Position numbers and translations under genes: made by a program
Assembly (NCBI GenBank): GCA_016194745.1
Contig: JACQBA010000013.1
Location: forward strand, 256,822 to 320,821
From: Elusimicrobiota bacterium
Lineage (GTDB): Bacteria; Elusimicrobiota; Elusimicrobia; UBA1565; JACRDR01
Reading direction: 5' to 3'
Length of the DNA: 64,000 bases
The notes under the pieces: model-generated
What the model saw: the letters and a program-made list of their open reading frames with translations, nothing else
Told to the model about the DNA's origin: nothing
The model's database searches: none
Shown here: positions 9,709-48,935 of the stretch, piece by piece
Layout: each line of letters opens with the position of its first letter
Position numbering within the stretch: the stretch's first letter is position 1

Positions 9709-9784
9709 GGGCCGTTAGCTCAATGGTTAGAGCACCGTCCTTACACGACGGGGGTTGGGGGTTCGAGTCCCTCACGGCCCACCA
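9709..9784 (+). tRNA. tRNA-Val (anticodon TAC), encoded CCA
   Basis: Cloverleaf read by hand: acceptor GGGCCGT/ACGGCCC, D-stem GCTC/GAGC, anticodon stem CCGTC/GACGG with loop CTTACAC, T-arm GGGGG-TTCGAGT-CCCTC, discriminator A then CCA. Confidence 0.9.
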
Positions 9785-14967: not shown

Positions 14968-15046
14968 GGGGTCGTGGTGTAGCCTGGCCTAACACGCCGC
15001 CCTGTCAAGGCGGAGACCGCGGGTTCAAATCCCGTCGACCCCGCCA
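14968..15046 (+). tRNA. tRNA-Asp (anticodon GTC), encoded CCA
   Basis: Acceptor GGGGTCG/CGACCCC, D-arm GTGT-AGCCTGGCCTA-ACAC, anticodon stem CCGCC/GGCGG with loop CTGTCAA, T-arm GCGGG-TTCAAAT-CCCGT, discriminator G then CCA. Confidence 0.9.
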
Positions 15047-31977: not shown

Positions 31978-32058
31978 AGGCTTTCAAGGCCTATTCGCCT
32001 TGTCGGAGTATAACAGGGGCCCCTGGCCGTTTCAAGTGTCCTGCCGACGAATATCGAG

Positions 32059-32087
32059 GCCCCCGAAAGAGGAGAACCCTCGGGGGC
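32059..32087 (-). terminator. Stem-loop (8-bp GC stem) downstream of the paralog-array operon; possible terminator
   Basis: GCCCCCGA-13 nt loop-TCGGGGGC. No clear U-tract. Confidence 0.25.
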
Positions 32088-32112
32088 CTCCAGATAATCC
32101 GCACGGTCTTCC

Positions 32113-32730
32113 TCAACGCACCGGAACCTTCACAAGCTCGACATTGGGTCCGTCGATCACCACCGAGACATAGTACTTGTAGCCCGGGTCCGGCGCCTTG
32201 AAATTCCCCACGAGGCGCCCGTATTCCCTGACGTCGCCCGTCACCTCGTCGATTTCGACGCTGCGCTTCTTGACCTGCTCCGACAGACGCAGGTAGTCCG
32301 CCAAGGTCCCGTCGCCGTATTTCACCCGGACGATGCGCCCGCCGTCACCCGTCAGCTCGCTTTGGACTTTCTCCGCCGCGCTTTGGAATGCGGCGCCGCG
32401 CGGATCGGGCCCGAGCTGCAGATGCAGGTTCCCGCGGAAGACGCCGTCCTTATAGATGCCGACCGACTTGCACCTGCAGTCCGGAGTCATCGTGGCCGGC
32501 CCGAACCGCACCCTGTAGCGCTCCTCCAGAGCGTCCAACACGTCCTTTATGATCAAAGCCTGCTGGTGCGCCCCTCTTGCGTCCTCTAGGCGTTCCGGCA
32601 TCCGTCGGCCCAAATCCTTGGCCGCGTCCATCACTCGGGGCTCTCCGCCGTCCGCCCTGGTTCCGAGCGCCGAAAGGACCGCGCCTGCGATCACCATCCA
32701 AGTGCTAGGCTTCATCGTGCCTCCCCTCAC
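32113..32730 (-). CDS. Secreted protein of unknown family, paralog 3 of a tandem triplet
   Basis: Signal peptide. Shares TPDCxCKSVGxY, DPRG, YGDGxLADYLRxS and EVTG blocks with 32727-33332. Confidence 0.6.
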   Translation of the reverse strand: MRGGTMKPSTWMVIAGAVLSALGTRADGGEPRVMDAAKDLGRRMPERLEDARGAHQQALIIKDVLDALEERYRVRFGPATMTPDCRCKSVGIYKDGVFRGNLHLQLGPDPRGAAFQSAAEKVQSELTGDGGRIVRVKYGDGTLADYLRLSEQVKKRSVEIDEVTGDVREYGRLVGNFKAPDPGYKYYVSVVIDGPNVELVKVPVR

Positions 32731-33332
32731 TGTCGTCGCGTCGGGATCTTCAGGAACTCGATGTCCTTCCCATCATCGTTTACCGACACCCAGTAGCGAT
32801 AGCGACCGATCTCATCCTTGAAGTTGTCCACGACCTGACCGCGCTGCGTGATCTCTCCCGTGACCTCGTTGACGCCGATCTTGTTGTCCTCCCGCTTCAT
32901 TGCCCCGGAGATGCGAAGGTAGTCGGCCAAGCTCCCATCCCCGTACCGCAGGGAGACGAATTCGGCGCCGCTCCGGCTGCTCAGGTGTCGTTGGAGCTGA
33001 TCGGCCCATTTCTGAAAGTCCGTCCCGCGAGGATCCTGCAGAAGTTCCAAGTGAACGTCTCCGAGGAACTCCTTGCCTCTGTAAAGACCCACGGACTTGC
33101 AGGGGCAGTCAGGCGTAGTCGTAGGCTCACGGAACGTGATCCCGTACCGGTCTTCCAGCGCCTTGAACACGTCCCGTTCAGGCCGGAGGAGCTGGCGTTC
33201 CCGCCTCAGGTCCTCTCGACGCGTTCTCAATCGTTCGATCGCCCCGGCGCCGCGCGTCTCCGCGCTGGCCTCGCTCTCCCAGAAGACTCCCGCGGACAAC
33301 AGTACCGCCGTGATCCAAAGCACGCGCATCAT
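32727..33332 (-). CDS. Secreted protein of unknown family, paralog 2 of a tandem triplet
   Basis: Signal peptide MMRVLWITAVLLSAGVF. Conserved blocks shared with 32113-32730. ATGA overlap with the downstream paralog. Confidence 0.6.
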   Translation of the reverse strand: MMRVLWITAVLLSAGVFWESEASAETRGAGAIERLRTRREDLRRERQLLRPERDVFKALEDRYGITFREPTTTPDCPCKSVGLYRGKEFLGDVHLELLQDPRGTDFQKWADQLQRHLSSRSGAEFVSLRYGDGSLADYLRISGAMKREDNKIGVNEVTGEITQRGQVVDNFKDEIGRYRYWVSVNDDGKDIEFLKIPTRRQ

Positions 33333-33333
33333 G

Positions 33334-33795
33334 TTATCGCCTCCTGCCGCATTCCTGAATTCCGGTACGCGGGTTCGCTACGCAATCGACGTCCTGTCGC
33401 TCGGAACCCTGCCGGCGCTCGAGCTCGAGCTTCTCCCTAGCCTTGCGATTGAACAAGTCCTCTATTTTGGCGGTCCAATTCTCCATTCCTCCGGGGCCCC
33501 CGGGGGAGTAGTACGAACGGATGGTTCCGACGTATTTTCCATCCTTGTGGACCTCGAGCATGGCGCACTGGCAGCCGGCCTCGTAGGTTGTCGGTTCTAT
33601 GAGCTTTATCCCGAACTTCTCCTCGAGAGCTCGACGCGCTTTCATCGTATTCTCCCTTTGCTCGTGTTCCGATTGGACCCGTTTCCCAAGTCTATTGGTC
33701 AATTCTCCGATCGGTTCGGCGGCGTACGCCGCTCCCGACAAGAACACCGCCGCCGCGATCGCCGCCACCTTCTCGTTCCAGGAATTGCGTGTCAT
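33334..33795 (-). CDS. Secreted protein of unknown family, paralog 1 (N-terminal module only)
   Basis: Signal peptide. ALEEKFGIKLIEPTTYEAGCQCAMLEV aligns with ALEDRYGITFREPTTTPDCPCKSVGLY and ALEERYRVRFGPATMTPDCRCKSVGIY of the neighbours. Confidence 0.55.
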   Translation of the reverse strand: MTRNSWNEKVAAIAAAVFLSGAAYAAEPIGELTNRLGKRVQSEHEQRENTMKARRALEEKFGIKLIEPTTYEAGCQCAMLEVHKDGKYVGTIRSYYSPGGPGGMENWTAKIEDLFNRKAREKLELERRQGSERQDVDCVANPRTGIQECGRRR

Positions 33796-33901
33796 GAGTC
33801 CTCCTCTCCAGCGCTAATCGGAGGATGCCCGTCCTGGTCAAGGATTGCCGGAGTGGTTTTTAAGTTTTTTTTAAGACGCGGCCGGGGAGGCCGATGCGGC
33901 G

Positions 33902-34552
33902 CTAGTTGACCGGAGCCGGAGGAACGGGCTGCTGGCGCTCGATCTCCTGCTTCAGGCGCTCCATCACGCGCTGGGCATGGCCGTCTTCCAAGTAAGGATC
34001 GTGCAGGAGGATGTTCATCGTCCCGTCCTCGTTGTACTTGAAGATGCTCTTGATCGGGACGAGGGCGTCCTCGGGCATCTTGTCGAAGGGGGCGGGCAAG
34101 TCCGCCTGCCGCAGGTTCATGCGCTTGTACATGAAATCGCCGGGCTCGCCGAAGTTGTCCCAGGAATAGGCGTTTTGGAGCGCGTTCTGGACGTCGCGCC
34201 GCTTCAGGAAATCGAGGAACGCCTGAGAGTTGTCGTCAGGTCCGCCCGTCGCCTTCATCATGCGGAACTGGAACAAGCGCCACGCGCCGCTCCCGTCCCA
34301 GGCGTACTGCGCCGAGTCGAGCACGAAGGGGCCCATCCGCGGGTCCCGCGCGCCCATCTTGGCGTCCTCGCGCCGCGTATCCCCGAGCGTCAGCATGAAC
34401 AACTCGGTTCTCCGCGTCGGCCCGCCGACGGGCGTCACGCTCCGCCACCCGTAATGGTGGATCGCCAGAGGAAACTCCTCCGGAGAGAAAGGCCGGGGCG
34501 CGGCCCACGCGGAGGCGGTCGACAAGAGCAGGCACAGCGAAATGAATCTCAT
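33902..34552 (-). CDS. Hypothetical secreted protein
   Basis: Signal peptide MRFISLCLLLSTASAWAAP. No recognisable domain. Confidence 0.5.
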   Translation of the reverse strand: MRFISLCLLLSTASAWAAPRPFSPEEFPLAIHHYGWRSVTPVGGPTRRTELFMLTLGDTRREDAKMGARDPRMGPFVLDSAQYAWDGSGAWRLFQFRMMKATGGPDDNSQAFLDFLKRRDVQNALQNAYSWDNFGEPGDFMYKRMNLRQADLPAPFDKMPEDALVPIKSIFKYNEDGTMNILLHDPYLEDGHAQRVMERLKQEIERQQPVPPAPVN

Positions 34553-34719
34553 ACGCGGAGGATATCGAAATCTACGCCGGTACCGCATCCGCCGATCGGC
34601 TCCCGCCGCCGAAGGGCCGAAGACCCACGATCTTGCGGCGCCGTGACGGCCCCGTGACGCGGTATTGACGGTTTCCGTTTATCCTGATAGACTCAGAGCG
34701 GTCCCGCTTTCCTTATAGA

Positions 34720-35697
34720 ATGACATCTTGTGGCAGATCGTGGGCATTGGCCGCCGTACTATCCTGGGCGTCGGCTACGGCTATCGCGCAGGTGAAAGCC
34801 GCTCCCAAACCGACGAACGCGCCGACCGATCTTGTCATCATCTTCGACACGAGCGGGAGCATGGGCGACCGGCTTCCCGCCGGACGCAAACTCGACATCG
34901 CCAAGGCCGCGATGTGGAAGTTCGTCGACGCCTTGCCCAAGAGCGTCAACGTCGGCCTGGTGCGCTACAGCGACTACAACGACTGCGGCGCGAAAGTCGT
35001 ATCGCCCATCATGAAATCTTCGCCCGAAAACCGCGCCCAGTTGAGGTCCGCCATCGCCTCTCTGCGCGCCTACGGCAACACGCCAATCGGCGCCTCCCTG
35101 CGGCGCGCGACCGAGCTCCTCGAATCCTCGAAGGGCAAGAAGCGGATCGTCGTCATGACCGACGGCGAGGACACCTGCAACGAGGCGGAAGTGGGGCGCG
35201 CCTCGGACGAGGCGTGGAAAAAAGGGATCAAGGTCTACGCGATCGGCTTCGCCTTCGGCGCGCTTCCCAGCAAGACGCTGCGCCGCATCGGCATATACAA
35301 GGACGCCAACGACGACGCGCAGCTCGCTTCCGTCTTCGCGGACATCAAGAAATCCCTCGAGCGGGAACCGGGCAAGTTCGACGAGGGCAGGCGCGACCCG
35401 GCTCTCGCCGAAACCCCGCCGGTATCGCTCAAGGGCAAGAGCGGCGCCTTCAGATCGTCGGGGCCTCACGCGGGCAAGCTGTTCAAGACGCTGCAGCTCA
35501 ATTCGTCATACGAGCACCGGTTCGACGAGAACGACCGGTTCACGGTGCTCGAGCACGGCTACCACGTGCTGTTCAACGAGCAGGAGTACATGGTGGACAA
35601 GGTCGAGGTGATGCGCGTACGGCTGGAGGAAAAGTTCAGCTTCATCTACGGCGGCGTCGAGGGATTCGTTTTCGCGCAGGACGTGACGGTACGATAG
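34720..35697 (+). CDS. Secreted von Willebrand factor type A (VWA) domain protein
   Basis: Signal peptide. MIDAS residues DTSGSM ... T ... MTDGEDT. Confidence 0.8.
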   Translation: MTSCGRSWALAAVLSWASATAIAQVKAAPKPTNAPTDLVIIFDTSGSMGDRLPAGRKLDIAKAAMWKFVDALPKSVNVGLVRYSDYNDCGAKVVSPIMKSSPENRAQLRSAIASLRAYGNTPIGASLRRATELLESSKGKKRIVVMTDGEDTCNEAEVGRASDEAWKKGIKVYAIGFAFGALPSKTLRRIGIYKDANDDAQLASVFADIKKSLEREPGKFDEGRRDPALAETPPVSLKGKSGAFRSSGPHAGKLFKTLQLNSSYEHRFDENDRFTVLEHGYHVLFNEQEYMVDKVEVMRVRLEEKFSFIYGGVEGFVFAQDVTVR

Positions 35698-35722
35698 CGA
35701 GGGACTAGGGAGGCATTCAACC

Positions 35723-36448
35723 ATGTGGGCAAGGTTCACCAGGCTAATACGAGCGTTCGCCGGCTTCTTCATCAGCACGATGGAGGACCCGAAGATGATC
35801 CTCGAGCAGACGATGCGAGACATGCAGGACAAGATCCCCGTCATGAACCAGGGCTTGGCCAAGGCGCGCGGCGGGATCATCATGCTCGAGAACGAGGCGA
35901 AGCAGTATGAGCGCGAGGTCGCCCTCCTGACGGCCAAGATCAAGGCCTGCGTCCAGAACAAGGAAGAGAGCCTCGGCGCCCAATACGCGATCCGCCTCAA
36001 GAAGACGCAGGAAGCGCTCGCCCGCAACCGCGAGCAAAGCGCCGCGGCCAAAGCCGGCTACGAGTCCCTCTTGAAGATGAAGGAGAAGTTCATGCGCGAG
36101 ATGAAGGCCAAGACCGAGGAGGCGATGGCCGCCATCCGCGACGCCGAGGCCTCGAAATGGAAGGGCGAGCTCGCCGACGTCTTCGAGCAGTTCGAGGTCG
36201 CCGGTGTCGACGCCACCTACGACGAGATGCTCGGCAAGCTCCGCCAGAAGAACGTGGAGGCCGAGGGGCGTCTCGCCATGGCCGCCGACAGCATCGACTC
36301 CAAGGCCATCGAGATCGACGAGAAGGCCGAGACGCTGGAAGGCAAGGAACTCTTCAAGCAGTTCCAAATGGAGATGGGCGTCGCCGACTCCGGCGACGGC
36401 AAGAAGGAAGAAGGCAAGAAAACGATCGGCATGAAGGAGAAAGAGTAA
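35723..36448 (+). CDS. PspA/IM30 (Vipp1) family protein, ESCRT-III-like
   Basis: N-terminus MWARFTRLIRAFAGFFISTMEDPKMILEQTMRDMQ matches the PspA/IM30 start (amphipathic helix plus EDPEKMLEQ...RDM). Long coiled-coil remainder. 241 aa. Confidence 0.8.
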   Translation: MWARFTRLIRAFAGFFISTMEDPKMILEQTMRDMQDKIPVMNQGLAKARGGIIMLENEAKQYEREVALLTAKIKACVQNKEESLGAQYAIRLKKTQEALARNREQSAAAKAGYESLLKMKEKFMREMKAKTEEAMAAIRDAEASKWKGELADVFEQFEVAGVDATYDEMLGKLRQKNVEAEGRLAMAADSIDSKAIEIDEKAETLEGKELFKQFQMEMGVADSGDGKKEEGKKTIGMKEKE

Positions 36449-38158
36449 ATGGAACTCAAGCTCGGCGGCAAGATCGCGCTGCTTCTCGTCATCCTGGGCC
36501 TCGGCCTCGGAGCCCTGTACAAATTCGGCCTGATCTCGGGCACCGGATTGCCCGGGAGCGGAGGCGCCGGAGCGGCCTCCCCCATCAAGAAGGAGACCCT
36601 CGACAAGATCCGCAAGGGCGAGGAGACGCCCACCACGGCGAAGAACTACAACTTCGTCGCCAAGCAGTCGATCACCGAGGTTAAAGGCACGAGCAACTAC
36701 CAATTCAAGGACAAGACGGTCGTCTTCCCGATCAACATCTGGGGCGGCTGGGCTCCCATCATCGCGGCCAACAACGGCTTCGGCCCGAACAAGGACTCGC
36801 TGTTCTTCAAGAACTACGGATTCCTGGTGGACTTGAAGCTCATCGACGACCCGGTCGCGGCGCGCGACGCCTTCGCCTCCGGACAGTCCCACGTCCTATG
36901 GGGTACGCTCGACATGATCGCGCTCTTCGCGCCGGGCCTGTCGCGGGACTCGCGTACCACGCCGATCGTCTTCCAGCAGATCGACTGGTCGAACGGCGGC
37001 GACGGCATCGTCGTCCGGGCGCACATCAACGAGGCGAAGGACCTGCGGGGCAAGACGATCGTGCTCGCGCAGAACTCGCCCTCGCACTACTACATCCTGA
37101 GCGTGCTGACGGACGCGGGCATCTCGCCGTCGGAGGTGAACTTCAAATTCACGGCGACCGCCTTCGAGGCCGCCAAGGCCTTCGTCGACAACGCCGGGAT
37201 CGACGCCTGCGTATCCTGGGCGCCGGACATCTACAACATCGTCGACGAGAAGTACGGCGGCAAGAAGGGCGGCGTCCAAGGGGCGCGCCTGCTGACGACG
37301 ACGCGCGACGCCTCCCAGCTCATCGCCGACGTGTGGGCGGTGCGGGCCGACTTCGCGCGGGACCACAAGGACATCGTCAAGGGACTCGCGGCCGGGATCT
37401 TCAAGGGCTACGACCTGGTCAAGCAGGACGGGCCCAAGATCGCGGCGCTGATGGCGAAAGGCTTCGGCGTGTCGGTGGACGAGGCGAAGTCCATGATGAT
37501 GGACGCCCACCTGACCAATTACCTGGAGAACAAGAAGTTCTTCCTCGACAAGGACAACCCGGCGAACTTCGCGCGCACGTGGGCGGCCGCGAGCTACGTC
37601 TACAAGGCGTACGGCGCCATCGGCACGCCCACGCGGGCCGAGGAGATCGCCGACACGACGGTCCTCGGCGAGCTCGACGGGCAGTTCCCGCACCACAAGG
37701 ACGAGTACATCCCGGCCTTCAACAAGGTGAACATCTCGCGCATGAAGCTCGAGAGCCAGCCTATTCTGACGAAGTCCGTCATGATCTCGTTCCCGCCCAA
37801 CCAGTGGGCGCTCGACCGCAAGTACGACCAGAACATCGACAACGTGCTCGAGGAGTCCGCGAAGCTCTCGGGCAAGTTCGCCGCCGCGCGCATCGTGATC
37901 GAGGGCAACGTGGACACGAGCCGCAAGATCGAGTTCCAGCGCGAGGGGCCGCGCGTGTTCAAGGAGATGTCCTTGGCCGTGCAGGAGCTCAGCGAGAAGC
38001 GCGCGGAGTCGGTCAAGCAGGCGATCGTGAACAAGTTCAAGTTCAACCCGAACAAGCTCGCCGTGATCGGCAACGGCTGGGACAACCCGGCGTCGCTGAC
38101 CGACCACACGAAGAACCGCCGCGTCGAAATCAAGGTCTATCCGCCCGAGGCCGAGTAG
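36449..38158 (+). CDS. Membrane-anchored ABC substrate-binding protein (NMT1/NitT-TauT type) fused to a C-terminal OmpA-like domain
   Basis: N-terminal TM KIALLLVILGLGLGALY. NMT1/SsuA-like binding fold. C-terminal ~110 aa with OmpA-C-like blocks (LSEKRAESVKQAIV ... NRRVEIKV). ATG immediately follows the PspA TAA. Confidence 0.7.
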   Translation: MELKLGGKIALLLVILGLGLGALYKFGLISGTGLPGSGGAGAASPIKKETLDKIRKGEETPTTAKNYNFVAKQSITEVKGTSNYQFKDKTVVFPINIWGGWAPIIAANNGFGPNKDSLFFKNYGFLVDLKLIDDPVAARDAFASGQSHVLWGTLDMIALFAPGLSRDSRTTPIVFQQIDWSNGGDGIVVRAHINEAKDLRGKTIVLAQNSPSHYYILSVLTDAGISPSEVNFKFTATAFEAAKAFVDNAGIDACVSWAPDIYNIVDEKYGGKKGGVQGARLLTTTRDASQLIADVWAVRADFARDHKDIVKGLAAGIFKGYDLVKQDGPKIAALMAKGFGVSVDEAKSMMMDAHLTNYLENKKFFLDKDNPANFARTWAAASYVYKAYGAIGTPTRAEEIADTTVLGELDGQFPHHKDEYIPAFNKVNISRMKLESQPILTKSVMISFPPNQWALDRKYDQNIDNVLEESAKLSGKFAAARIVIEGNVDTSRKIEFQREGPRVFKEMSLAVQELSEKRAESVKQAIVNKFKFNPNKLAVIGNGWDNPASLTDHTKNRRVEIKVYPPEAE

Positions 38159-38167
38159 GCGGCGCTC

Positions 38168-38974
38168 ATGATGCTGGCCCCCGTGCAGTTCAAGATTCGG
38201 GGCGACTCCGCCCCGAGGAGCCGTTTCCTCCTCGGGGCGGCGAGCGTCACGATCGTCCTGCTGCTCTGGTGGCTGCTGACGGCGGGCGAAAGCGTGGAGA
38301 CGCGCTACCTCAGCCCGCAGATTCTTCCTAACCCGGTGGAAGTGCTGCAGTCGTCGGGCTCCCTGTACACGGAGCGCAACCTGACGACCAGCATCGCCTA
38401 CAGTTTCTTCCGGACCACGGTCGGCTTCCTCATCGCGGCGCTCATCGCGGTGCCGCTCGGGATCCTCATGGCGTCGTTCACGTCCGTGCGGGACTTTTTC
38501 CGCCCGCTCAGCACGATCGGCGGCTACATCCCGATCGCAGTGCTCGTCCCGCTGACGCTGTCGTGGTTCGGGCTCGGGGAGAAGCAAAAGATATTATTTC
38601 TCGCCATCGCGACGTTCGTGATGCTCCTGCCGCTGATTGTCAACGCCATCGACCAGGTGGACGACGTCTACCTGCAGACGGCCTACACGCTCGGCGCCAC
38701 CCCGTGGCAGACCGTCTTTTACGTGCTTGTCCCGGTGGCGCTCGTGGGGATATACGACTATCTCTGCTTGACCTACGGCATCGGCTGGGGATACATCATC
38801 CTCGCCGAGGTCATCGACGCGCGCTTCGGCCTTGGGAGCCTCATCATCACGTCCCAGCGTCGGGGCCCGTACGAGCACGTCTACGCGGTCTTGATCGTGA
38901 TCATACTCATCAGCATCTTGATCAACAACGCGCTCGCGTACGTCGGCAAATGGCTGTTCCCCTATCGAGAGTGA
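38168..38974 (+). CDS. ABC transporter permease (NitT/TauT family, BPD_transp_1)
   Basis: Six TM segments with the EAA-like loop, 268 aa. Confidence 0.85.
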   Translation: MMLAPVQFKIRGDSAPRSRFLLGAASVTIVLLLWWLLTAGESVETRYLSPQILPNPVEVLQSSGSLYTERNLTTSIAYSFFRTTVGFLIAALIAVPLGILMASFTSVRDFFRPLSTIGGYIPIAVLVPLTLSWFGLGEKQKILFLAIATFVMLLPLIVNAIDQVDDVYLQTAYTLGATPWQTVFYVLVPVALVGIYDYLCLTYGIGWGYIILAEVIDARFGLGSLIITSQRRGPYEHVYAVLIVIILISILINNALAYVGKWLFPYRE

Positions 38975-38976
38975 CC

Positions 38977-39876
38977 ATGGACCTTCGCGGAAAGATCGGC
39001 GGCGCCGTCTCGAGGATCCGCGGGCTGTTCGCCCGGCCGGAAGCGCCCGCGCAGGACCCGGCGCGGTTCGCCGCCTACTCGGACACGTCGATCCCGGTGA
39101 TCGAGTGCAAGAACGTCACCAAGATCTTCAAGGATCGCCGCACCGGCAAGGAATCGATCGCGCTCGAGAACGTGTCGTTCACGATCGAAGATCTTCCCAA
39201 TATGGGCGAGTTCATCACGATCCTCGGCCCCTCGGGCTGCGGGAAGAGCACGCTGCTGAACATCATCTCCGGCCTGGAGCCGCACTACCCGCAGACCAAG
39301 GGCGAGGTGAAGGTCAAGGGCGCCCCGGTGGCGGGCCCGGGCTCCGACCGCGGCATGGTTTTCCAGAGCTACTCCTCGTTCCCGTGCTACACCGTGCTCG
39401 AGAACGTCGCGTTCGGGCTCATGCTCAAGGGCGCGCCGGAGAAGGAGCGCGAGGACATCGCGGCGGATTGGATCAAGAAGGTTAAGCTCGCCGGATTCGA
39501 GCGGAAATACCCCAAAGAGCTCAGCGGCGGCATGCGCCAGCGTGTCGCGCTCGCCCGGACGCTCGCGGTCAATCCGAGGATCGTTCTCATGGACGAACCC
39601 TTCGGCGCGCTCGACCGCATCACCCGCTGGGAGATGCAGGACCTCCTCATCGAACTATGGGAGAAGGTCCAGGCGACCGTGTTCCTCGTGACGCACGACA
39701 TCCCCGAAGCGGTGTATCTGGGCGACCGGCTGTTCTTGATGACGCCGCGGCCCGGCCGCCTGACCGAGATCGTGAAGCTCCCCCGGCCCACGGAGAAGGC
39801 CGCCGAGATGCAGCGCACCTCCCGCTTCGCGGAGACCGTCAACGAGATCAGCCGCAAGGTGGAGTCGATCCACTAG
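38977..39876 (+). CDS. ABC transporter ATP-binding protein (NitT/TauT family)
   Basis: Walker A GPSGCGKST, signature LSGGMRQRVALAR, Walker B IVLMDEPFGALD, H-loop VTHD. MVFQ...FPCYTVLENVAFGL is typical of SsuB/TauB-like ATPases. The track ORF start at 38563 is a frame run-on through the permease, so the real start is ATG 38977. Confidence 0.9.
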   Translation: MDLRGKIGGAVSRIRGLFARPEAPAQDPARFAAYSDTSIPVIECKNVTKIFKDRRTGKESIALENVSFTIEDLPNMGEFITILGPSGCGKSTLLNIISGLEPHYPQTKGEVKVKGAPVAGPGSDRGMVFQSYSSFPCYTVLENVAFGLMLKGAPEKEREDIAADWIKKVKLAGFERKYPKELSGGMRQRVALARTLAVNPRIVLMDEPFGALDRITRWEMQDLLIELWEKVQATVFLVTHDIPEAVYLGDRLFLMTPRPGRLTEIVKLPRPTEKAAEMQRTSRFAETVNEISRKVESIH

Positions 39877-39879
39877 CCC

Positions 39880-40704
39880 ATGGCCGACAAGATCAACTAC
39901 GTCAAGGAGGCGTTCAAGCGCCAGGAGAACCTGATCACCCTGGCCGGACTGGGCGTCGCCGGCGTGGCGTTCAATGCGGGATTCCTCCTCTTGGGCGGCG
40001 CCCTCGAGCTGGCCTATCTCTGGCTCATCTCGTCGAATCCGCGGTTCCAGCGCGTCGTGAATTCCGAGAAGAGCCAAGCCCGCCTGCGCTTCGACCAGTC
40101 CGAGAAGGACAAGCTCGCCGCCGCCCTGCCGATGAACGAGCATCGCCGCTTCCAGGAGCTCCAAGGCGTGCGCCAGCGCGTCTACGAGGCCTGGCAGGCC
40201 CGGGACGCGGTCACACAGTCGCTCCTGCAGCCGAGCGTCGACAAGCTGGACTACCTTTTGGATACTTTCCTGCGCGCCCAAGTGACCCTGCACCACATGC
40301 GGTCCCACCTGGCGTCCAGCGACCGGGCGTTCCTTCAGAAGCAGGCGCAGATGATCGAGGCGGAGATCGCGCGGGGGCTCACGGACAAGGTCCGCGAGGT
40401 GAAGGAGCGCAACTTGGACATTCTCAAGCAGCGCCTGGCGAAGCTCCAGAAGCTGCAGGAGGACCAGGAAATCGTCAAGACGCAGCTCGATACCCTCGAG
40501 AACGCGATCAAGTTCGTGAGCGACCAGTCCGTATCGCTCACGGATCCTCAGCAGATCACGGGCCAGATCGACCGGGCGGTCTCCGAGGTAGGCGACACGG
40601 AGCGCTCTCTGCAAGAAGTCGAATCGTTTCTCGGCATGCAGGAAGGCGTCGACAAGAAACAGGAGGGCGCGGCGCGGCAGCAGGCGCAGCAGAAACAAGA
40701 ATGA
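39880..40704 (+). CDS. Membrane-anchored coiled-coil protein, unknown function
   Basis: One N-terminal TM/hairpin (LITLAGLGVAGVAFNAGFLLLGGALELAYLWLI), then ~200 aa of predicted coiled coil and a Gln-rich tail. Confidence 0.55.
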   Translation: MADKINYVKEAFKRQENLITLAGLGVAGVAFNAGFLLLGGALELAYLWLISSNPRFQRVVNSEKSQARLRFDQSEKDKLAAALPMNEHRRFQELQGVRQRVYEAWQARDAVTQSLLQPSVDKLDYLLDTFLRAQVTLHHMRSHLASSDRAFLQKQAQMIEAEIARGLTDKVREVKERNLDILKQRLAKLQKLQEDQEIVKTQLDTLENAIKFVSDQSVSLTDPQQITGQIDRAVSEVGDTERSLQEVESFLGMQEGVDKKQEGAARQQAQQKQE

Positions 40705-42407
40705 GCCTCGAAGGATATCCCGGCTGGGCGAAGGACCTGGCGGACCGCTACATGAGCGGAGCGTCGTCGCTGTTCTTGATCTACGGGAACGTCAACGACT
40801 GGGTGCCCCTGCGCGAGGGCGGCAAGGTGCGCTTCGTGTCCCTGCCCGAGTTCCTCAAGACCGCGGTCTTCGGCAAGCGGGAGATGGTCCTCCAGTACGA
40901 CCAAGGCAGCGGCATCACCATGAGCCGCGACATGGTCACCGATTTCTACAAGGTCGTCGAGGCGATGGACGCCGCCGCCGGCACCGGCTACGCCAAGCGC
41001 CTGCCGAAGGCTCCCGCCGAGGCCCTCGCGGTGATCGACCGCTACCTGCGCACCCGCGCCTCGGCCAAGGGCGGCACCGCGGCCATCATCGACTACGCCC
41101 ACATGGTGGCGCCGCGTAGCGACGTCCAGTTCATGAGCCAGGAGGATTTCCGGACGATCATCCTTCTGCAGAAGTGGGCGAACGATCCGGAGCTCTCCCG
41201 CTCCGACGTGACGATCGCGCTGGTGACCGCGAACCTCCAGGACTTGAACGAGGCGATCATCAACAATCCGTTCACCTCGAAGGTCGAGATTCCGCTCCCC
41301 GACGAAGCCGAACGGCTCGAGTACATCCAATCCACCGCCCTTCAGGTCAAGTACGAAGGCCTGACGCCGGAGACCTTCGCCCGGCAGACGAACGCGCTGT
41401 CGCGGGTCGACATCGAAGTCATCCTGCGCGAGGCGCAGCGGGTGGGCAAGCTCGACCTGGGCTTCGTCGCCAAGAAGAAGAAGGAACTCATCGAGAAGTC
41501 CTGCTTCGGTCTGCTCGAGTTCCTGGAGCCGCGGGCGACCCTCGATGCGGTCCAGGGACAGGGCGCCGCCAAGCAGCGCTTGCGCGAGGACATCGAGCTC
41601 ATCAAGAAGGGGCAATGGGACGCGCTGCCCATGGGATACCTGTTCTGCGGCCCGGTCGGCACGGGCAAGACATATCTCGCGACCTGCGCAATCGGCGAAC
41701 TCGGCGTGCCCTGCGTCCAGCTCCTTAATTTCCGCTCCAAATGGGTCGGAGCGACGGAAGGCAACCTCGAGAAGATCCTGCTCACGCTGCGCGCCCTCGG
41801 CCCGGTCGGGGTCATCATCGACGAGGCCGACGCCTTCATGGGCAGCCGCTCGCAGGACGGCGACAGCGGCACGTCCAACCGCATCTTCGCCCAGTTCGCG
41901 AGCCAGATGGGAGACACCAAGTACCGCGGCAAAATCCTATGGTTCCTCCTGACCTGCAGACCCGACCTGCTTCCCGTGGACATCAAGCGGCAAGGACGCG
42001 TCGAGATCCACATCCCCCTCTTTTATCCGCAGACCGACGCCGAGAAGGGAGAACTCTTCGTGGCCATGTCGAAGAAGCAGAAATGGCCGATCGACGCCAA
42101 GGACGTCGACCCCTCGAGCTTCAATGGCAAGAAATTGTCGGGAGCCGACATCGAGGCCATCCTCGTCAGCGCCAAGCGCAAGAGCCTCCTCGACGGCGAC
42201 GCCAAGGAGAAGAAGCACTACCTGAAGCTCGCGGCCACGGACTTCATCCCCGCGACGAGCTCTTCCGAGGTCCAATACCAGGAGCTCGCCGCGGTCGTGG
42301 AATGCACGGACCGAGGCTTCCTCCCGGAGATCTACCGGAAGGCCGACCGCCTCGAGCTGCTCAAGGAGTTCAACCGCCTCAAGCTCGTCCTCGGAGAGGC
42401 CGCATGA
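40701..42407 (+). CDS. AAA-family ATPase (classical clade) with a degenerate N-terminal AAA-like domain
   Basis: C-terminal domain has Walker A GPVGTGKT, Walker B VGVIIDEADAF and second region of homology TCRPDLLPVDIKRQGRVEIHIPLFYP. The N-terminal ~270 aa lack a P-loop but keep an AAA-like segment (TIALVTANLQDL...FTSKVEIPLPDEAERLEYI). ATGA overlaps on both sides. Confidence 0.8.
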   Translation: MSLEGYPGWAKDLADRYMSGASSLFLIYGNVNDWVPLREGGKVRFVSLPEFLKTAVFGKREMVLQYDQGSGITMSRDMVTDFYKVVEAMDAAAGTGYAKRLPKAPAEALAVIDRYLRTRASAKGGTAAIIDYAHMVAPRSDVQFMSQEDFRTIILLQKWANDPELSRSDVTIALVTANLQDLNEAIINNPFTSKVEIPLPDEAERLEYIQSTALQVKYEGLTPETFARQTNALSRVDIEVILREAQRVGKLDLGFVAKKKKELIEKSCFGLLEFLEPRATLDAVQGQGAAKQRLREDIELIKKGQWDALPMGYLFCGPVGTGKTYLATCAIGELGVPCVQLLNFRSKWVGATEGNLEKILLTLRALGPVGVIIDEADAFMGSRSQDGDSGTSNRIFAQFASQMGDTKYRGKILWFLLTCRPDLLPVDIKRQGRVEIHIPLFYPQTDAEKGELFVAMSKKQKWPIDAKDVDPSSFNGKKLSGADIEAILVSAKRKSLLDGDAKEKKHYLKLAATDFIPATSSSEVQYQELAAVVECTDRGFLPEIYRKADRLELLKEFNRLKLVLGEAA

Positions 42408-43105
42408 GCCTCGGCGACTGGCTCGACAAGTACGTCATCAGCATCGGGCCGCGCAAGGACGCGCCGCCCTCGGGCGAGGTGGACCTTTCCGAGATCGGCC
42501 TCAAGGCGGACGGCAAGATGGATGCGATCGCGGCTCAGGTGGACGAGTCCAAGCTGCGCGCGGTCCCCGGCTTGGACACCCCGTTCCAGAAAATTTACGA
42601 CGCCGCCCGCATCGCCGTGCCCGAGCACAAGTTCACGGTGGAAAAGATCGGCGAGATGCTCGCCCATCCTAAGCTCGCCTCCCTCGCCCGCGAGGCCAAG
42701 GCCGCGGCCGTCCTCGTCGCCCTCGACGCGCAAGGCGTCTCCATCAACAGCGTCCTCGAGGACGCCGTCAAAAAGGACCGCGCGCTCGACATCTTCGAGA
42801 AGGTCCAGCGCGACCACCTGAAGCAGTCGGTGCAGGCCAAGGAGGAGGAAAACCGGCGCCTCGTCGAGGAGATCGAGAAGGTCACGCGGGAGAAGCAGAA
42901 GCTCATCGAGGACAACAAAAAGGCCATCGTCGACATTCAGGCGAAGGCGGCAGACTGGCTGGAGCGGAAGCGAGCCATGGAAAACAACCTCCACGAGATC
43001 GTCCAGCATTTCACGACGGACAATCCGATCACGATCGAGGCGATCGAACTGCCCGCGGCCACGGTAAAGATCACGGACCTCACCCAGCCGAAGAAGGGCT
43101 CATGA
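42404..43105 (+). CDS. Hypothetical protein (C-terminal coiled coil)
   Basis: 233 aa. Translationally coupled to the AAA ATPase gene. No recognisable domain. Confidence 0.55.
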   Translation: MSLGDWLDKYVISIGPRKDAPPSGEVDLSEIGLKADGKMDAIAAQVDESKLRAVPGLDTPFQKIYDAARIAVPEHKFTVEKIGEMLAHPKLASLAREAKAAAVLVALDAQGVSINSVLEDAVKKDRALDIFEKVQRDHLKQSVQAKEEENRRLVEEIEKVTREKQKLIEDNKKAIVDIQAKAADWLERKRAMENNLHEIVQHFTTDNPITIEAIELPAATVKITDLTQPKKGS

Positions 43106-43701
43106 GCGAACAGGCGTCCCCGGTCTTCCCCTCGAAAGGGCACTACCTCGTCGGTTCCCGCCGCGCGGCGCGCGTGGGCGAGACGCCTCTCGACGATCTC
43201 GTGGAAATCTGGCAGCGCGTGACGTCCAGAGTCGTCAAGTACGGCTTCAAGATCGCCTACGAGGACCTCGAGCCGCCCAGGACGGGCATCTTCGACGGAC
43301 ACCGCATCGTCATGGACCCGGACGTCGGGTTCGAGATGCAGTGCTTCGTCCTCCTCCATCTCTTCGGGCATTCCGTTCAGTGGGTCGCCCCCTCCTTGGA
43401 GGCGAAGCTCGCGGCGATCACCGACACCAAGGACAAGGGACGATTCATGGAGGCGCTCAAGGCCTACGAGTTCGAGGCGGCGCGCTTCGGCCTCCAACTT
43501 CTGCGCGAGGCGGACGTCGATGGCATAGACCAGTGGTACAGCGACTTCGTCCATACAGACTGGCGCTACGTCGAGCGCTATTACGAGACCGGCTCGATCC
43601 CCCCGTGGACGTCGTGCGTCGTGACCGGCGCCGCGCCGATCAAGCCCCTCGCGATCCCGCCCCTCAAGCACCGAGCCGTCGAAGTGCGCTTCGCTTTCTG
43701 A
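43102..43701 (+). CDS. Hypothetical protein
   Basis: 199 aa. ATGA overlap upstream and TGATG overlap downstream. No recognisable domain. Confidence 0.55.
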   Translation: MSEQASPVFPSKGHYLVGSRRAARVGETPLDDLVEIWQRVTSRVVKYGFKIAYEDLEPPRTGIFDGHRIVMDPDVGFEMQCFVLLHLFGHSVQWVAPSLEAKLAAITDTKDKGRFMEALKAYEFEAARFGLQLLREADVDGIDQWYSDFVHTDWRYVERYYETGSIPPWTSCVVTGAAPIKPLAIPPLKHRAVEVRFAF

Positions 43702-44396
43702 TGAGCCGTCCCTTCCTGCGGTTGCGGGCGATTCTCTTCCGCTCCCGAGGCATGCTGACGGTGGTCGGCGTATGGTTCGTTCTCGGATTCCTCGGGTTCC
43801 ATTTCGGCGGCGGACTCGATTGGCGGGATTCGTTCCTGTCCGCCATCTACTTCGAGGTGCAGCCGGACAATTTCAGCCAGGGCTACGCCTTCTGGGGTCA
43901 GTCCATGCTTTTCGGCTTCGTCGTCGCCGCGCTGCTGCGGGAGACTCAAGAAAATCACACGGAGAGGTGCCGCGTCATGTCCGGCTTGATGAAGAACCAC
44001 ACGATCATCGTCGGCTTCACCCACCTAGGGAGCCGGCTCGTCGACCACTGCATCGCCAACAAGATCCCCTACGTGCTGATCGAGAAGGAAAAACGGCTCG
44101 TGGACGACCTGATCCGGGCCAACGAGCCGGTCATCGTCGACGACGCCCGCTCGCGCGACGCCCTGCCCAGCGCGAACATCACGCACGCGCGCCGGGTGAT
44201 CATCGCGGCCAACAACATCGAGACCGCGCTGGTGGTCACCAAGAACGCGCGCGACGCCAATCCGTCCTGCCGGATCGCCGCGCGCTGCGCCATCGACGAC
44301 CTTGTCGGCGTCCTGGAAAAGCTGGGTGCGGACCGCGTCTACTTGGCCTCGCTCGCCGCCTTCAATGAGCTGTCTCAATTCCTGGACGAATCCTGA
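43701..44396 (+). CDS. Ion-channel-like protein: two TM segments plus a cytoplasmic RCK/TrkA-N domain
   Basis: Two hydrophobic helices with a re-entrant-like segment. Then GxGxxG-type Rossmann TIIVGFTHLGSRLVDHC...VLIEKE of TrkA-N/RCK domains. No canonical TVGYG K+ filter. Confidence 0.6.
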   Translation: MSRPFLRLRAILFRSRGMLTVVGVWFVLGFLGFHFGGGLDWRDSFLSAIYFEVQPDNFSQGYAFWGQSMLFGFVVAALLRETQENHTERCRVMSGLMKNHTIIVGFTHLGSRLVDHCIANKIPYVLIEKEKRLVDDLIRANEPVIVDDARSRDALPSANITHARRVIIAANNIETALVVTKNARDANPSCRIAARCAIDDLVGVLEKLGADRVYLASLAAFNELSQFLDES

Positions 44397-44406
44397 CGCC
44401 TAGACG

Positions 44407-44841
44407 CTAGACGTGCGCGGCGAAAGACACGCGCCGGACGACCTCTCCGGCCTTGCGGGGAGTGGTTTTGAGAGCGATGTCCGCCTGAGACACGATGCCG
44501 ACGCAGCGTCCGTCCTCATCGACGACGGGCACCCGACGGATCTGGTTCTCCTCGAGCAGCCGGCAGCATTCCTCGATCCCCGTTTCCCGCGTCACGGTGA
44601 CGCAGTCGTTGGTCATGCAGTCCCGCGCCTTGGCCTGCTTGGCGTCGACGCCGCGGGCGACGACGCGGCATGCGATGTCGCGGTCGGTGATCACGCCGAT
44701 CGGACGCATAGAACTCTTGCCGTCCACCACAGGGATCTCCCCGCAGTCGTGGTCGCACATCATCCGCGCGACGGCCTGAACGTCGGTATCCGCGGTGCAG
44801 CACGCCGGATTCTCGGTCATGACGTCCTTTACATGTTGCAT
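44407..44841 (-). CDS. CBS domain pair protein
   Basis: Two CBS motifs (VKDVMTENPACCTADTDVQAVARMMCDHDCGEIPVVD ... IRRVPVVDEDGRCVGIVSQADI). Confidence 0.8.
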   Translation of the reverse strand: MQHVKDVMTENPACCTADTDVQAVARMMCDHDCGEIPVVDGKSSMRPIGVITDRDIACRVVARGVDAKQAKARDCMTNDCVTVTRETGIEECCRLLEENQIRRVPVVDEDGRCVGIVSQADIALKTTPRKAGEVVRRVSFAAHV

Positions 44842-45042
44842 TGGGCCCTCCTACCCATAGTATAGCCCCGCCGACATGTACGTCGTGTAATAGTTTCGCG
44901 CAGCCATGGGCGCTTCAAAATAAAGTGACCCCCCCGCCATAGGGTCGCGGGCCGAATGGAACTACAGTTAAAGGAAGGCGCAACGGCACGCTGCGTGCGC
45001 CTGTCGGACGACGCACCCCGGACACCTTAAGGAGGCTCCACC

Positions 45043-45474
45043 ATGGCTATGGCGCGCAAACCAAGACAAAGAAACGACGGCAAGCGGCGATCCCCGGCGG
45101 CATCCGACCGAGACGGGGAGCAACTCCAGCGCGAGACGCAGCAGGCGCGGCTCCGCCTGGACGACGATCGGGACAAACTGGAGTATCGCGGCCGGGAACC
45201 GCATCACTTCGGGACGACCGGACTATCCGAGCGGGACCGCTACGAGCCGTTGGGAAGCTATCCTGAGGGGCGCGGGATCGATTTTCCGGAAGATCGCGGC
45301 CCCAATGCCGGGGAGGACCTTTCCGACGACCGCCGCAGCCTCTTGCATCAGGGCCTTGAATACGGCGGACGCCAGCCCAGTGAAAAGGGCATCGAGGAGA
45401 AGACTCCGGACCGCCATGCCCGGCGAACGCCCTCCAAGCGCGGGAACGAGGGCAAGGCTCCTCGAGGCCGCTGA
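45043..45474 (+). CDS. Highly charged, probably disordered protein (Arg/Asp/Glu-rich)
   Basis: Perfect Shine-Dalgarno AAGGAGG 7 nt upstream of the ATG. Composition-biased 143-aa product. No homology recognised. Confidence 0.4.
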   Translation: MAMARKPRQRNDGKRRSPAASDRDGEQLQRETQQARLRLDDDRDKLEYRGREPHHFGTTGLSERDRYEPLGSYPEGRGIDFPEDRGPNAGEDLSDDRRSLLHQGLEYGGRQPSEKGIEEKTPDRHARRTPSKRGNEGKAPRGR

Positions 45475-45531
45475 CGGAGATCGAATCGGCGGGGCGGCGA
45501 CGCCGTCCGCCCCGCCGTCCTCCCCCCGCCC

Positions 45532-46626
45532 ATGGCCCCCACCGATCGCCGCGCGTCGACCTTGTCTCTAGCGGTCCTGCTCTTCGTCGTCGGCCTCCTG
45601 TTCCTCACCATGGTGTCCCCGTTCGTGCTTGCCCTTTCGATGGGCGCGCTCGCCGCCACGCTGACCCACCCGATCTATCGAAGGCTCGAGCGCCTGCTCG
45701 GCCCGCTGACGTCCGCCGCCCTCGTCGTCGCGGGACTGACGGTGCTCGCGGTAGGGCCGCTATCGGTGTTCGCCGCGATCGCCCTCAAGGAAGGCCGGGA
45801 GCTTTTCTCGCAACTCACCAAGGACGGGGCCGGCGTCTCCCCGTCGGCGTTGGCGGCGAGCGCGGCGCGCCGATTCCCCCTGCTTCGTACGATCGGAGGC
45901 CCCGAAGACATCGAGCGCGGCGTGAGCGGGTTTCTTATGGCAAGTGTGAGTCAACTGAGCGAGGAGGTCCTCGCGAGGTTCAGCGGCGTGCCGGAAGCCG
46001 CGCTCCAAGGGCTCCTGGCGCTGATCTCCTGCTTCTTTTTCCTCATGGAAGGAGAGCGGCTCTTGGATTGGGCGTTCGCACGCATCCCGCTGGCGGCAGA
46101 GCCGCGCCGGTCCGTGCTTGACGCGCTTCGAGACGGGGTGAGGTCCTCGATCCTGGCGGCGTTCGCCGCGGCGCTGGCGCAGACCCTCCTGCTGCTCCTC
46201 GGATTCGTCGCGCTGGGCATCCCCGGAATATTCTTCGCCGTCGGCGTGTCCTTCGTGCTGTCATGGCTTCCCATCATCGGATGCTCCCCGGTCTGGATCG
46301 GGGCCTCCGTCTACCTCTTCGCCCAAGGCGCGACGGGACGCGCAATCGCCATGCTCTGCATCGGGCTGGCGACGAGCGTCGTCGACAACATCGTGCGGCC
46401 GCTGGTCTTGAAGGGCCGCGGCGACATCCACCCGCTGCTCGGATTCGTCGCGATACTGGGCGCGATCCGGCTCTTCGGCGTCGCCGGGGTGTTCCTCGGG
46501 CCCGTCGTCGCGACCTTGCTCATCGCGCTGCTGGACGCCATTCCGCCGCCACGAACCGAATCGGACGACTCGACGCGCCGCGGCCGAGGAGAAGCCTCCC
46601 GCGCCGAGGCGCTCGAGCCGCCCTGA
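45532..46626 (+). CDS. AI-2E family transporter (UPF0118/PerM-like)
   Basis: About 8 TM segments with the AI-2E architecture and a charged C-terminal tail. Confidence 0.8.
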   Translation: MAPTDRRASTLSLAVLLFVVGLLFLTMVSPFVLALSMGALAATLTHPIYRRLERLLGPLTSAALVVAGLTVLAVGPLSVFAAIALKEGRELFSQLTKDGAGVSPSALAASAARRFPLLRTIGGPEDIERGVSGFLMASVSQLSEEVLARFSGVPEAALQGLLALISCFFFLMEGERLLDWAFARIPLAAEPRRSVLDALRDGVRSSILAAFAAALAQTLLLLLGFVALGIPGIFFAVGVSFVLSWLPIIGCSPVWIGASVYLFAQGATGRAIAMLCIGLATSVVDNIVRPLVLKGRGDIHPLLGFVAILGAIRLFGVAGVFLGPVVATLLIALLDAIPPPRTESDDSTRRGRGEASRAEALEPP

Positions 46627-46630
46627 CGGA

Positions 46631-47068
46631 TCAACTGTACTGATCGCTCAGGCGAGCCAGCGCCATGGCGCCGACCATGAGCCCGAAATCTCGAAGAGCG
46701 ACATCGAAGAATCCGGGCAGGAGCAGCATATTCACGATGATGCCGGCCAGCCAGACCGCCACCACGCGCGCTCCGATCCTCGGGTTGAACGCCACCAGGA
46801 TGCCGGCCGCGATTTCCACGATCCCGACCATCCTCATCATGAGCGCGAGACGGCCGCCGAAGAGGGACAGATACGCCGGCGACGCGTACATGCTCCAGTC
46901 CACGAGCATGTTGAAGAACTTGTCGACGCCGGCGACGATCGGCAGACCCACGAAGCCCGCGTACAGCAAGGAGAACGCCTGATACCCCGGGTTCGTGCCC
47001 CCCGCGGCGCGCCCCATGCGCTCACCCTCGACGGCTCGCTCCCTGCCCAGCGTGCTCTGCATCGCCAT
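46631..47068 (-). CDS. DoxX-like small membrane protein (start uncertain)
   Basis: Four hydrophobic helices in ~130 aa with DoxX-like composition. Alternative starts at 47062 or 47017. Confidence 0.45.
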   Translation of the reverse strand: MAMQSTLGRERAVEGERMGRAAGGTNPGYQAFSLLYAGFVGLPIVAGVDKFFNMLVDWSMYASPAYLSLFGGRLALMMRMVGIVEIAAGILVAFNPRIGARVVAVWLAGIIVNMLLLPGFFDVALRDFGLMVGAMALARLSDQYS

Positions 47069-47313
47069 AAACGCCTCCCTGCCGTACATCGGCACACTCT
47101 TAGGATACCTCGCGCGCGAGGCGCCCGACCATCGAGTCGTCGCAACGGAATGATGTCCGCTCCGTGACTCAGAGGACGGCCGGCGCGTCACACGGCCGTC
47201 AAACAAGAATTACGAGGACGTCACTGGCGGTTTTCTATCATTCTCTTTACGCTTGAGCACGGTCCGCGAGCCTGGCACTTGCGGGTCGAAAGCTCGGGGA
47301 ATAAACTATTGCT

Positions 47314-48935
<1,622 letters not shown>

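Follow-up and report, generated by a model that had tools for sequence, protein, structure and literature searches.

From comparisons of genomes, Ravi et al. (mSystems 2024, PMC11237479; bioRxiv 2020) predicted a bacterial operon type built around the polymer-forming protein PspA and a tandem AAA+ ATPase (section 18, Table S3 and Text S2.2 of that paper). They found that bacterial PspA occasionally co-occurs with a protein carrying two AAA+ copies, the N-terminal one inactive, reported the PspA-AAA+ dyad in Firmicutes, and observed that PspA, a transmembrane (TM)-anchored Snf7 homolog and the tandem AAA+ protein also occur together in longer operons. The published gene string reads PspA, SIG+PBPB+OmpA, TM permease, ATP-binding cassette (ABC) ATPase, SIG+TM+'Snf7' and inactive-AAA+AAA, with OGG56892.1 of Candidatus Handelsmanbacteria as the example, and ATP-dependent, Vps4-like membrane remodelling linked to solute transport was proposed for it (PMC11237479). 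Here we analyse a probable Elusimicrobiota case of this type, an operon of ten genes (g1 to g10) at positions 34720-44396 of a 64,000-nucleotide stretch of the contig JACQBA010000013.1, hereafter the window.

The view taken in reviews is that bacteria lack a Vps4-like ATPase. According to a 2025 review, such an enzyme 'appears absent in bacteria' (PMC7619361), and in Makarova et al. (mBio 2024, PMC10936438) ESCRT systems that have ESCRT-III together with Vps4 are restricted to archaea and eukaryotes. Our literature searches found no experimental work on the pair of PspA and tandem AAA protein. An AAA+ protein of another kind is already tied to PspA: PspF of E. coli, an AAA+ enhancer-binding protein, binds it (PMC7619361), which was overlooked in an earlier note on this DNA when it held that canonical psp operons have no AAA ATPase.

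The six genes from g2 to g7 have the gene content and order published by Ravi et al. The locus differs from theirs in a gene for a von Willebrand factor A (VWA) protein, g1, in front of PspA, where the paper gives only 'X(s)', and in g8, g9 and g10 behind; g8, the VWA partner and the C-terminal K-T-I-G tail of PspA are not described there. The operon had been put forward in the earlier note as an undescribed system, a claim that falls to the fact that both the gene string and the Vps4 analogy are in print (PMC11237479). The core of our finding has thus been described already, computationally; what is new in this analysis is the conservation of g8, the VWA protein as a recurrent partner, the PspA tail and the exclusion of g9 and g10. 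As a rediscovery of a prediction already published from comparative genomics, it is of value not as a discovery but for sharpening and trimming that hypothesis, with g9 and g10 taken out and g8 brought in.

The classical Psp (pspF-pspABCDE) and Lia (liaIHGFSR) systems share with this operon a PspA effector and a small membrane partner, and g6 is possibly analogous to PspB/C or LiaI. Unlike in those systems, the ATPase g7 is of the classical-clade unfoldase type and not a sigma-54 enhancer-binding protein, and we could not detect PspB, PspC, PspF, LiaI/F or Toastrack among the ten operon products (Pfam, NCBIfam) or ten flanking open reading frames (ORFs; Pfam). The archaeal 'Meth_adaptin' ESCRT loci with ProX (Makarova et al., PMC10936438) also link an ESCRT-III/AAA module to an ABC solute-binding protein; the likeness is one of gene linkage, and lineage, binding-protein family (ProX versus TauA-like) and accessory genes all differ.

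Results

The PspA-AAA core recurs across phyla

All ten ORFs lie on the + strand and are separated by tight junctions. The genes g1 and g2 are spaced by 25 nucleotides (nt), the TAA of g2 and the ATG of g3 abut at 36446-36451 (0 nt), and the g3/g4, g4/g5 and g5/g6 spacings are 9, 2 and 3 nt, respectively. ATGA overlaps join g6 to g7 (at 40701), g7 to g8 (at 42404) and g8 to g9 (at 43102), and the g9/g10 junction is a TGATG overlap at 43699-43703. The ten ORFs, their coordinates and every junction listed in the earlier note were reproduced from the sequence, as were all its domain calls with Pfam and NCBIfam; g6, g8 and g9 matched no Pfam family.

A scan with an alignment of 16 g7 sequences (A1), keeping one genome per species, gave 80 loci. 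These belong to Elusimicrobia, Riflebacteria, Acidobacteriota, Myxococcota (cultured Corallococcus and Myxococcus among them), Bacteroidota/Rhodothermales and Planctomycetota. Look-ups of close homologs added three further Elusimicrobia loci, for a total of 83 related loci (referred to by numbers prefixed with L), and g1-g10 were placed on them by tblastn and envelope-trimmed hidden Markov models. Examining these loci revealed that the core from g2 to g7 recurs, in permuted order, in Elusimicrobiota, Acidobacteriota, Planctomycetota and metagenome-assembled genomes (MAGs) of deltaproteobacteria. The order is g1-g2-g3-g4-g5-g6-g7-g8 in Elusimicrobia, g8-g2-g3-g4-g5-g6-g7 in about 20 Acidobacteriota loci, g2-g7-(g1)-g3-g4-g5-g6 in Phycisphaerae and some deltaproteobacterial MAGs, and g7-g2-g3-g1-g3-g3-g4-g5 in Riflebacteria. 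A looser variant is found in Myxococcota, where g2 is followed by a short g3 and by g6 while g7 stands about 7 kb off, the ABC block is inverted in L053, and the dyad of g2 and g7 stands alone in L054, L072 and L074.

Presence was counted in the 42 loci whose sequence extends 7 kb or more to each side of g7. The ABC ATPase g5 was present in 34 of them, g6 in 33, the PspA gene g2 in 32, g3 in 30 and g4 in 21; g8 occurred in 17/42, g9 in 5/42, g1 in 4/42 and g10 in none (0/42). PspA and the AAA ATPase form the minimal recurrent unit and the most persistent pairing across phyla. Since dozens of genomes, spread over several phyla, carry the core, the linkage of its genes is not due to chance, and the persistence of this linkage through rearrangement across phyla is strong evidence for a joint function. 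With this check of gene neighbourhoods, the earlier claim of one conserved system is borne out for the core.

A further locus (L087), outside these 83, lies on a contig classed as viral, IMGVR_UViG_3300029286_002355 (186 kb; 38% G+C at the locus), and carries homologs of g3-g4-g5 and g7 at 42-53% identity. We rejected a viral origin of the system, for which this would be the case: it is a single IMG/VR contig with most of the system (g3, g4, g5 and g7), and its 186 kb look bacterial. Mis-binning of a bacterial contig, or the flank of a prophage, may explain it.

g2 is a full-length PspA homolog with a subfamily-specific tail

The product of g2 (35723-36448; 241 residues) matches the Pfam family PspA_IM30 (PF04012) over residues 2-205 with an E-value of 8.9e-12 and 45.5 bits, above the gathering cut-off of 33.9. 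Positions 1-199 of the profile of its family (A3) align to residues 2-200 of solved Vipp1 (E 3e-13), and also to PspA chains, in an alignment that takes in the N-terminal amphipathic helix alpha0. Judged by this full-length colinearity and by the Pfam score, g2 is a genuine full-length PspA/Vipp1 homolog and had rightly been called PspA/IM30. It belongs to the bacterial PspA/Vipp1 branch of the superfamily and not to the Snf7 branch of ESCRT-III.

The last ~40 positions of the g2 family are not matched by solved PspA or Vipp1. This tail (36380-36445 in the window) consists of F-x-x-E-M-G, a variable linker of about 12-25 residues and a terminal K-T-I-G; the terminal motif is K-x-L-G-P in loci of the planctomycete type. 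A tail of the K-T-I-G type is kept wherever the AAA ATPase adjoins PspA, even in loci with the dyad only (the loci include L003, L054, L072, L074, L081 and L082). Flexible and closed by a conserved short motif, the tail is analogous to the MIT-interacting motif (MIM) of ESCRT-III and is a candidate MIM-like recruitment motif.

g7 combines a degenerate and an active-type AAA half

The tandem AAA protein g7 (40701-42407; 568 residues) has a degenerate AAA-like N-terminal half and a C-terminal half of the active type and the classical clade, the latter matching Pfam AAA over residues 314-439 (E 3.1e-23). We found a Walker A motif (GPVGTGKT, 317-324), pore loop 1 (KWVG, 347-350), a Walker B motif (IIDEAD, 372-377), sensor-1 T418 and the arginine fingers R430 and R433. 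Both Walker motifs, W348 and G350 of the pore loop, T418 and R430/R433 are invariant among the 16 homologs of A1 (45-74% identity), and on these motifs the C-terminal domain is catalytically competent. The assignment to the classical AAA clade made in the earlier note is thereby upheld, with the translocating pore loop intact. The g7 product is 100% identical to a protein encoded on a 386-kb contig of an Elusimicrobiota MAG. Residues 142-530 of g7 are also matched by the PHROG family phrog_8638, which has 568 positions.

The N-terminal half, passed over in the earlier note, has no Walker A motif and carries IIDYA where the Walker B sequence IIDEAD stands in the other half; the two halves align weakly in hhalign (E 0.0064), with IIDYA opposite IIDEAD, in agreement with the inactive AAA copy described by Ravi et al. 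No Pfam family was matched by residues 1-275, even at E-values up to 10, and no MIT domain was detected there.

The pore loop of Vps4 is KWMG. Of the Vps4-like features that had been proposed as a check on g7, a pore loop of this kind is therefore present (KWVG), and an MIT-like N-terminal domain was not detected with Pfam. As in the ESCRT-III and Vps4/CdvC systems, a gene of the polymer-forming ESCRT-III superfamily lies near a classical-clade AAA gene with an aromatic pore loop; unlike Vps4 and CdvC, g7 has an extra AAA-like half and is closer to the D2 domain of Cdc48, PAN and IteA. Its nearest solved relatives are the D2 domains of Cdc48/p97/VAT, and its top 60 PDB matches comprise Cdc48/p97/VAT, AFG2, NSF, NVL and Rix7, with Vps4 not among them. 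Against NCBIfam models it scored 74.6 bits for CDC48, 63.1 for PAN, 61.5 for IteA and 53.4 for CdvC, with FtsH ranking alongside CdvC. Because its motifs are intact, its kinship is with the Cdc48 D2 domain, and its N-terminal half is AAA-like and falls into no Pfam family, g7 is a plausible substrate-threading unfoldase and not a member of the Vps4 family.

g6 and g8 are conserved proteins outside assigned families

Directly upstream of g7, g6 (39880-40704; 274 residues) encodes a membrane-anchored all-helical protein. In its AlphaFold2 model (predicted local distance difference test 80.8, predicted template modelling score 0.60), six helices come after a TM hairpin that spans about residues 15-52, and the positive-inside rule places both termini, and hence presumably the helical domain, in the cytoplasm. 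It belongs to a large, uniform family that counts 1639 representatives at 50% identity. Proteins of this type were labelled membrane-anchored 'divergent Snf7' by Ravi et al. (PMC11237479), a view that the earlier note had missed.

Downstream of g7, the accessory protein g8 (42404-43105; 233 residues) had not been recognised in the earlier note as a conserved component, and we found no Pfam, PDB or PHROG match for it. Homologs are nevertheless kept with the system: they lie 3' of g7 in Elusimicrobia (L081-L083; L081:9078-9719) and 5' of PspA in about 20 Acidobacteriota loci (for example L047:4234-4905). They share an N-terminal W-[YLV]-x-x-[YF]-[VIF]-[VI]-S, which a variable linker separates from a region of helical or coiled-coil character, and they carry F-x-T-[ED]-N-P-I-T at the C-terminus. 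By this distribution of homologs, g8 is a conserved accessory component in two phyla, at differing positions in the operon.

An anchored importer and a VWA partner

The three genes g3-g5 encode the parts of an ABC importer of the NitT/TauT (TauABC/SsuABC) kind, matching TauA/SsuA, TauC and TauB models, respectively. The binding protein g3 (36449-38158; 569 residues) has an N-terminal TM anchor, a periplasmic binding domain of the TauA/SsuA/NMT1 type (Pfam NMT1, 3.8e-6) and a C-terminal OmpA-like peptidoglycan-binding domain (Pfam OmpA, 5.5e-9), and among solved chains it comes closest to E. coli TauA (3.9e-10) and Omp38. The permease g4 (38168-38974; 268 residues) is TauC/SaoP-like (Pfam BPD_transp_1, 1.2e-20; NCBIfam TauC, 1.7e-29), and the ATPase g5 (38977-39876; 299 residues) is TauB-like (Pfam ABC_tran, 5.7e-30; NCBIfam TauB, 1.1e-68). 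Unlike TauABC and SsuABC, however, g3 is TM-anchored and fused to an OmpA-like domain, and all three scores fall far under the NCBIfam equivalog cut-offs (TauA 46 vs 490, TauC 103 vs 342, TauB 231 vs 357 bits), so that by model score g3-g5 are TauABC at the family level only.

The first gene of the operon, g1 (34720-35697; 325 residues), encodes a secreted VWA protein (Pfam VWA, 1.3e-19) with a signal-peptide-like N-terminus, a complete metal ion-dependent adhesion site motif (DTSGS, T, D) and, at its C-terminus, an uncharacterised domain of ~110 residues. Its relatives at large are generic VWA proteins. Within the system, strong matches occurred in Elusimicrobia (L081, L082) and Riflebacteria (L003), and those in Phycisphaerae (L069, L077) were marginal (first-round phmmer E ~4e-4).

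The 3' end of the operon is plastic

The operon ends after g8 in L081 and L082, the closest relatives of the locus; only g1-g8 are held in common, and the flanks of this block are not syntenic among relatives. The gene g9 (43102-43701) encodes a small zincin-like protein of 199 residues with invariant H-L-F-G-H and Y-E-x-E-A motifs; the zincin-like fold is a prediction, and HLFGH stands in place of HExxH, the catalytic Glu being absent. It has more than 1100 homologs, the best 120 listed of which are 62-71% identical, far closer than the relatives that the other operon products have outside Elusimicrobia. Two close homologs (three loci) are stand-alone genes in unrelated contexts, one of them beside a gene for an M16 peptidase, and in six Acidobacteriaceae loci g9 lies convergently just 3' of g7. 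A role for g9 as the active protease partner in a split system of the FtsH kind was considered and is not supported, given that the catalytic Glu is absent and the close homologs sampled stand alone.

The last gene, g10 (43701-44396), encodes a protein of 231 residues with two TM segments and a cytoplasmic RCK/TrkA_N domain (Pfam TrkA_N, 3.8e-20). We could not detect a K+ selectivity filter of the TVGYG type in it, the loop between the TM segments reading EVQPDNFSQGY, nor an Ion_trans_2 match in Pfam. We therefore dismissed its reading as a 2TM-RCK potassium channel of the MthK/Kch type, for which the domain is present and both filter and Ion_trans_2 match are lacking. No homolog of g10 was found in any of the 83 related loci, which rules it out as a conserved component, and the RCK channel should consequently not be built into a mechanism. 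Because the relatives end at g8, g10 has no homologs there and the kin of g9 stand alone, we set both genes aside: they look like lineage-specific additions and not parts of the machine, probably so in the case of g9. The machine of ten genes proposed in the earlier note is not sustained for the same reasons.

Some lineages carry a regulator-like gene at this end. In L002 (3482-5029; Elusimicrobia) a REC-HisKA-HATPase hybrid sensor kinase overlaps the g7 stop codon, in place of g8, and a kinase of the REC-HisKA-HATPase type is also present in L082, 3 kb downstream. These genes hint at two-component control of the system in some lineages.

Discussion

A possible remodelling cycle for PspA polymers

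We consider it probable, on balance, that the operon is an Elusimicrobiota case of the published type, combining a PspA polymer, a tandem AAA+ unfoldase, an anchored helical partner and a peptidoglycan-tethered TauABC-like importer. That it amounts to a bacterial functional analogue of ESCRT-III and Vps4, in which g6 recruits the PspA polymer, g7 disassembles it by way of the K-T-I-G tail and the importer gates the cycle, is put forward more tentatively, as a possibility somewhat short of an even chance. The persistence of the PspA-AAA pairing across phyla matches what the idea of an 'ESCRT-III plus Vps4-like remodeller' predicts. The gene content, the tight junctions, the domain identities, the catalytic competence of the C-terminal AAA domain and the cross-phylum linkage are shown by the sequences; the interactions between the products are inferred and might run as follows. 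By analogy with solved PspA and Vipp1 homologs, g2 would use its amphipathic helix to bind the inner membrane from the cytoplasmic side and polymerise there, at a site that g6 would mark or nucleate. A hexamer of g7 would then grip a flexible tail, most plausibly the K-T-I-G tail of PspA, thread it through the KWVG pore and extract subunits, so that the polymer would be turned over or remodelled as ESCRT-III is by Vps4. The conserved g8 would serve as adaptor or regulator. The importer g3-g5, whose binding protein would be anchored in the inner membrane and tethered to peptidoglycan, may couple this activity to a solute close to the envelope or to the condition of the wall, together with the periplasmic g1 in some lineages; g9 and g10 would be lineage-specific passengers at the plastic 3' end. 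Of the envelope machine of PspA and AAA ATPase outlined in the earlier note, the logic of the PspA-AAA pairing stands, and the ten-gene boundary, the RCK channel and the novelty do not.

Several observations weigh against this account. In 7 of the 42 full-flank loci g7 has no g2, g3 or g6 nearby, and in Myxococcota it lies ~7 kb away from PspA. The ATPase is not specifically Vps4-like, with no MIT domain detected, two AAA-like halves and Cdc48, PAN and IteA models that outscore CdvC. The g6 family shows no similarity to ESCRT-III, Snf7 or PspA that the tools used here could detect, and we could not reproduce the Snf7 label given to it. Finally, the role in recruitment that we assign to the K-T-I-G tail is purely inferred.

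Four other explanations were weighed. The best placed of them, though unlikely, makes g7 an extractor for membrane-protein quality control in the style of Cdc48, Msp1 or FtsH, working with no protease and with g6, with or without g8, as its adaptor; PspA would only seal the bilayer and would not be the substrate. It would account for the proximity of g7 to the D2 domain of Cdc48/VAT, for a resemblance to the PAN and FtsH models above that to CdvC, for the position of a membrane-anchored g6 directly 5' of g7 with an ATGA overlap, and for the loci in which g7 has no PspA nearby. It is hard to square with dyads of PspA and g7 that do without g6 (L054, L072 and L074) and with a PspA tail motif conserved wherever g7 adjoins; moreover, no peptidase is conserved in the system, g9 lacking the catalytic Glu and being rarely linked. 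A second reading, to which we give a rather low probability that ranks next after the extractor, concerns the ABC module, which would be a sensor or transducer through which g3 reports the status of the wall or periplasm to PspA and the AAA ATPase, and not an importer of nutrients or osmolytes. The unusual triple build of g3 (TM anchor, binding domain and OmpA), transporter parts that all score far under the TauABC/SsuABC equivalog cut-offs and the periplasmic VWA partner of several lineages point this way, but g4 and g5 look like any type-I importer subunits, their motifs being intact, and Myxococcota retain a short binding protein with no OmpA domain and a different ABC arrangement.

The operon could also be a mosaic of independent modules (a sulfonate/taurine importer, PspA, an AAA chaperone and a channel) that genome streamlining has brought side by side and that share no function, given that compact high-GC genomes often show tight junctions and overlaps and that g9 and g10 appear to be unrelated add-ons. 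This is very improbable: the linkage from g2 to g7 is kept in at least four phyla despite rearrangement and inversion, and the architecture of g3 and the g6 family are found essentially in this context. The lowest probability, a slight one indeed, goes to an anti-phage or abortive-infection system that would manipulate the membrane on infection. Such a system might explain why the G+C content of the region lies below that of its surroundings, why the flanks are non-syntenic among relatives, with phage-like genes in L081 and L082, and why g7 matches the IetA/IteA models and a PHROG family that shares its length and much of its span. However, the PADLOC matches are those of generic ATPases, for g5 (mad3 and other ABC-like models) and g7 (IetA, TRIP13), with no partner of the IetS type; g1, g2, g3, g4, g6, g9 and g10 had no PADLOC match and g8 two marginal ones (E 0.003-0.005), and Acidobacteriota and Myxococcota carry the system widely and stably.

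The comparison with Vps4 bears on how bacterial polymers of the ESCRT-III type, such as those of PspA and Vipp1, are disassembled and recycled. This family of operons is the best genomic candidate for a Vps4-like activity in bacteria, which reviews deny (PMC7619361, PMC10936438); if true, the remodelling idea would contradict the review-level view that bacteria lack Vps4-like regulators of ESCRT-III and would describe the first ATP-driven remodelling cycle of PspA. Because the family is present in cultivable Myxococcus and Corallococcus, the idea is directly open to genetics and reconstitution, and the PspA tail motif, the g8 family and the VWA partner offer handles for mutagenesis.

Flanking genes and other features of the window

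The operon is bounded upstream by a divergent gene (33902-34588, - strand) and downstream by a convergent CBS-pair gene (44407-44841, - strand), an ordinary gene with no evident link to the system. A sigma-70-like promoter match on the + strand (34665-34693; TTGACG-17-TAGACT, TG-extended) lies 27 nt 5' of the g1 start codon; it is a weak consensus match only, with 2 sites found against 1.2 expected from shuffled sequence. A terminator-like hairpin on the same strand (44443-44462), likewise a weak consensus match only, lies 47 nt 3' of the g10 stop codon.

The G+C content of the window is ~0.68 (0.68-0.70 over most of it), and that of the stretch at ~32-48 kb is mostly 0.62-0.64; the region 32000-48000 may be horizontally acquired or variable. 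Four - strand ORFs directly 5' of the operon (32113-34588) gave essentially no Pfam match apart from one borderline DUF1163, and have no counterparts beside the system in relatives. Further 3' of the operon lies a gene for an AI-2E family transporter (45532-46626, + strand), with no evident link to the system. We found no tandem repeats in the window, and the sole Rfam/ARAGORN matches in it were tRNA-Val(TAC) and tRNA-Asp(GTC), at 9709-9784 and 14968-15046.

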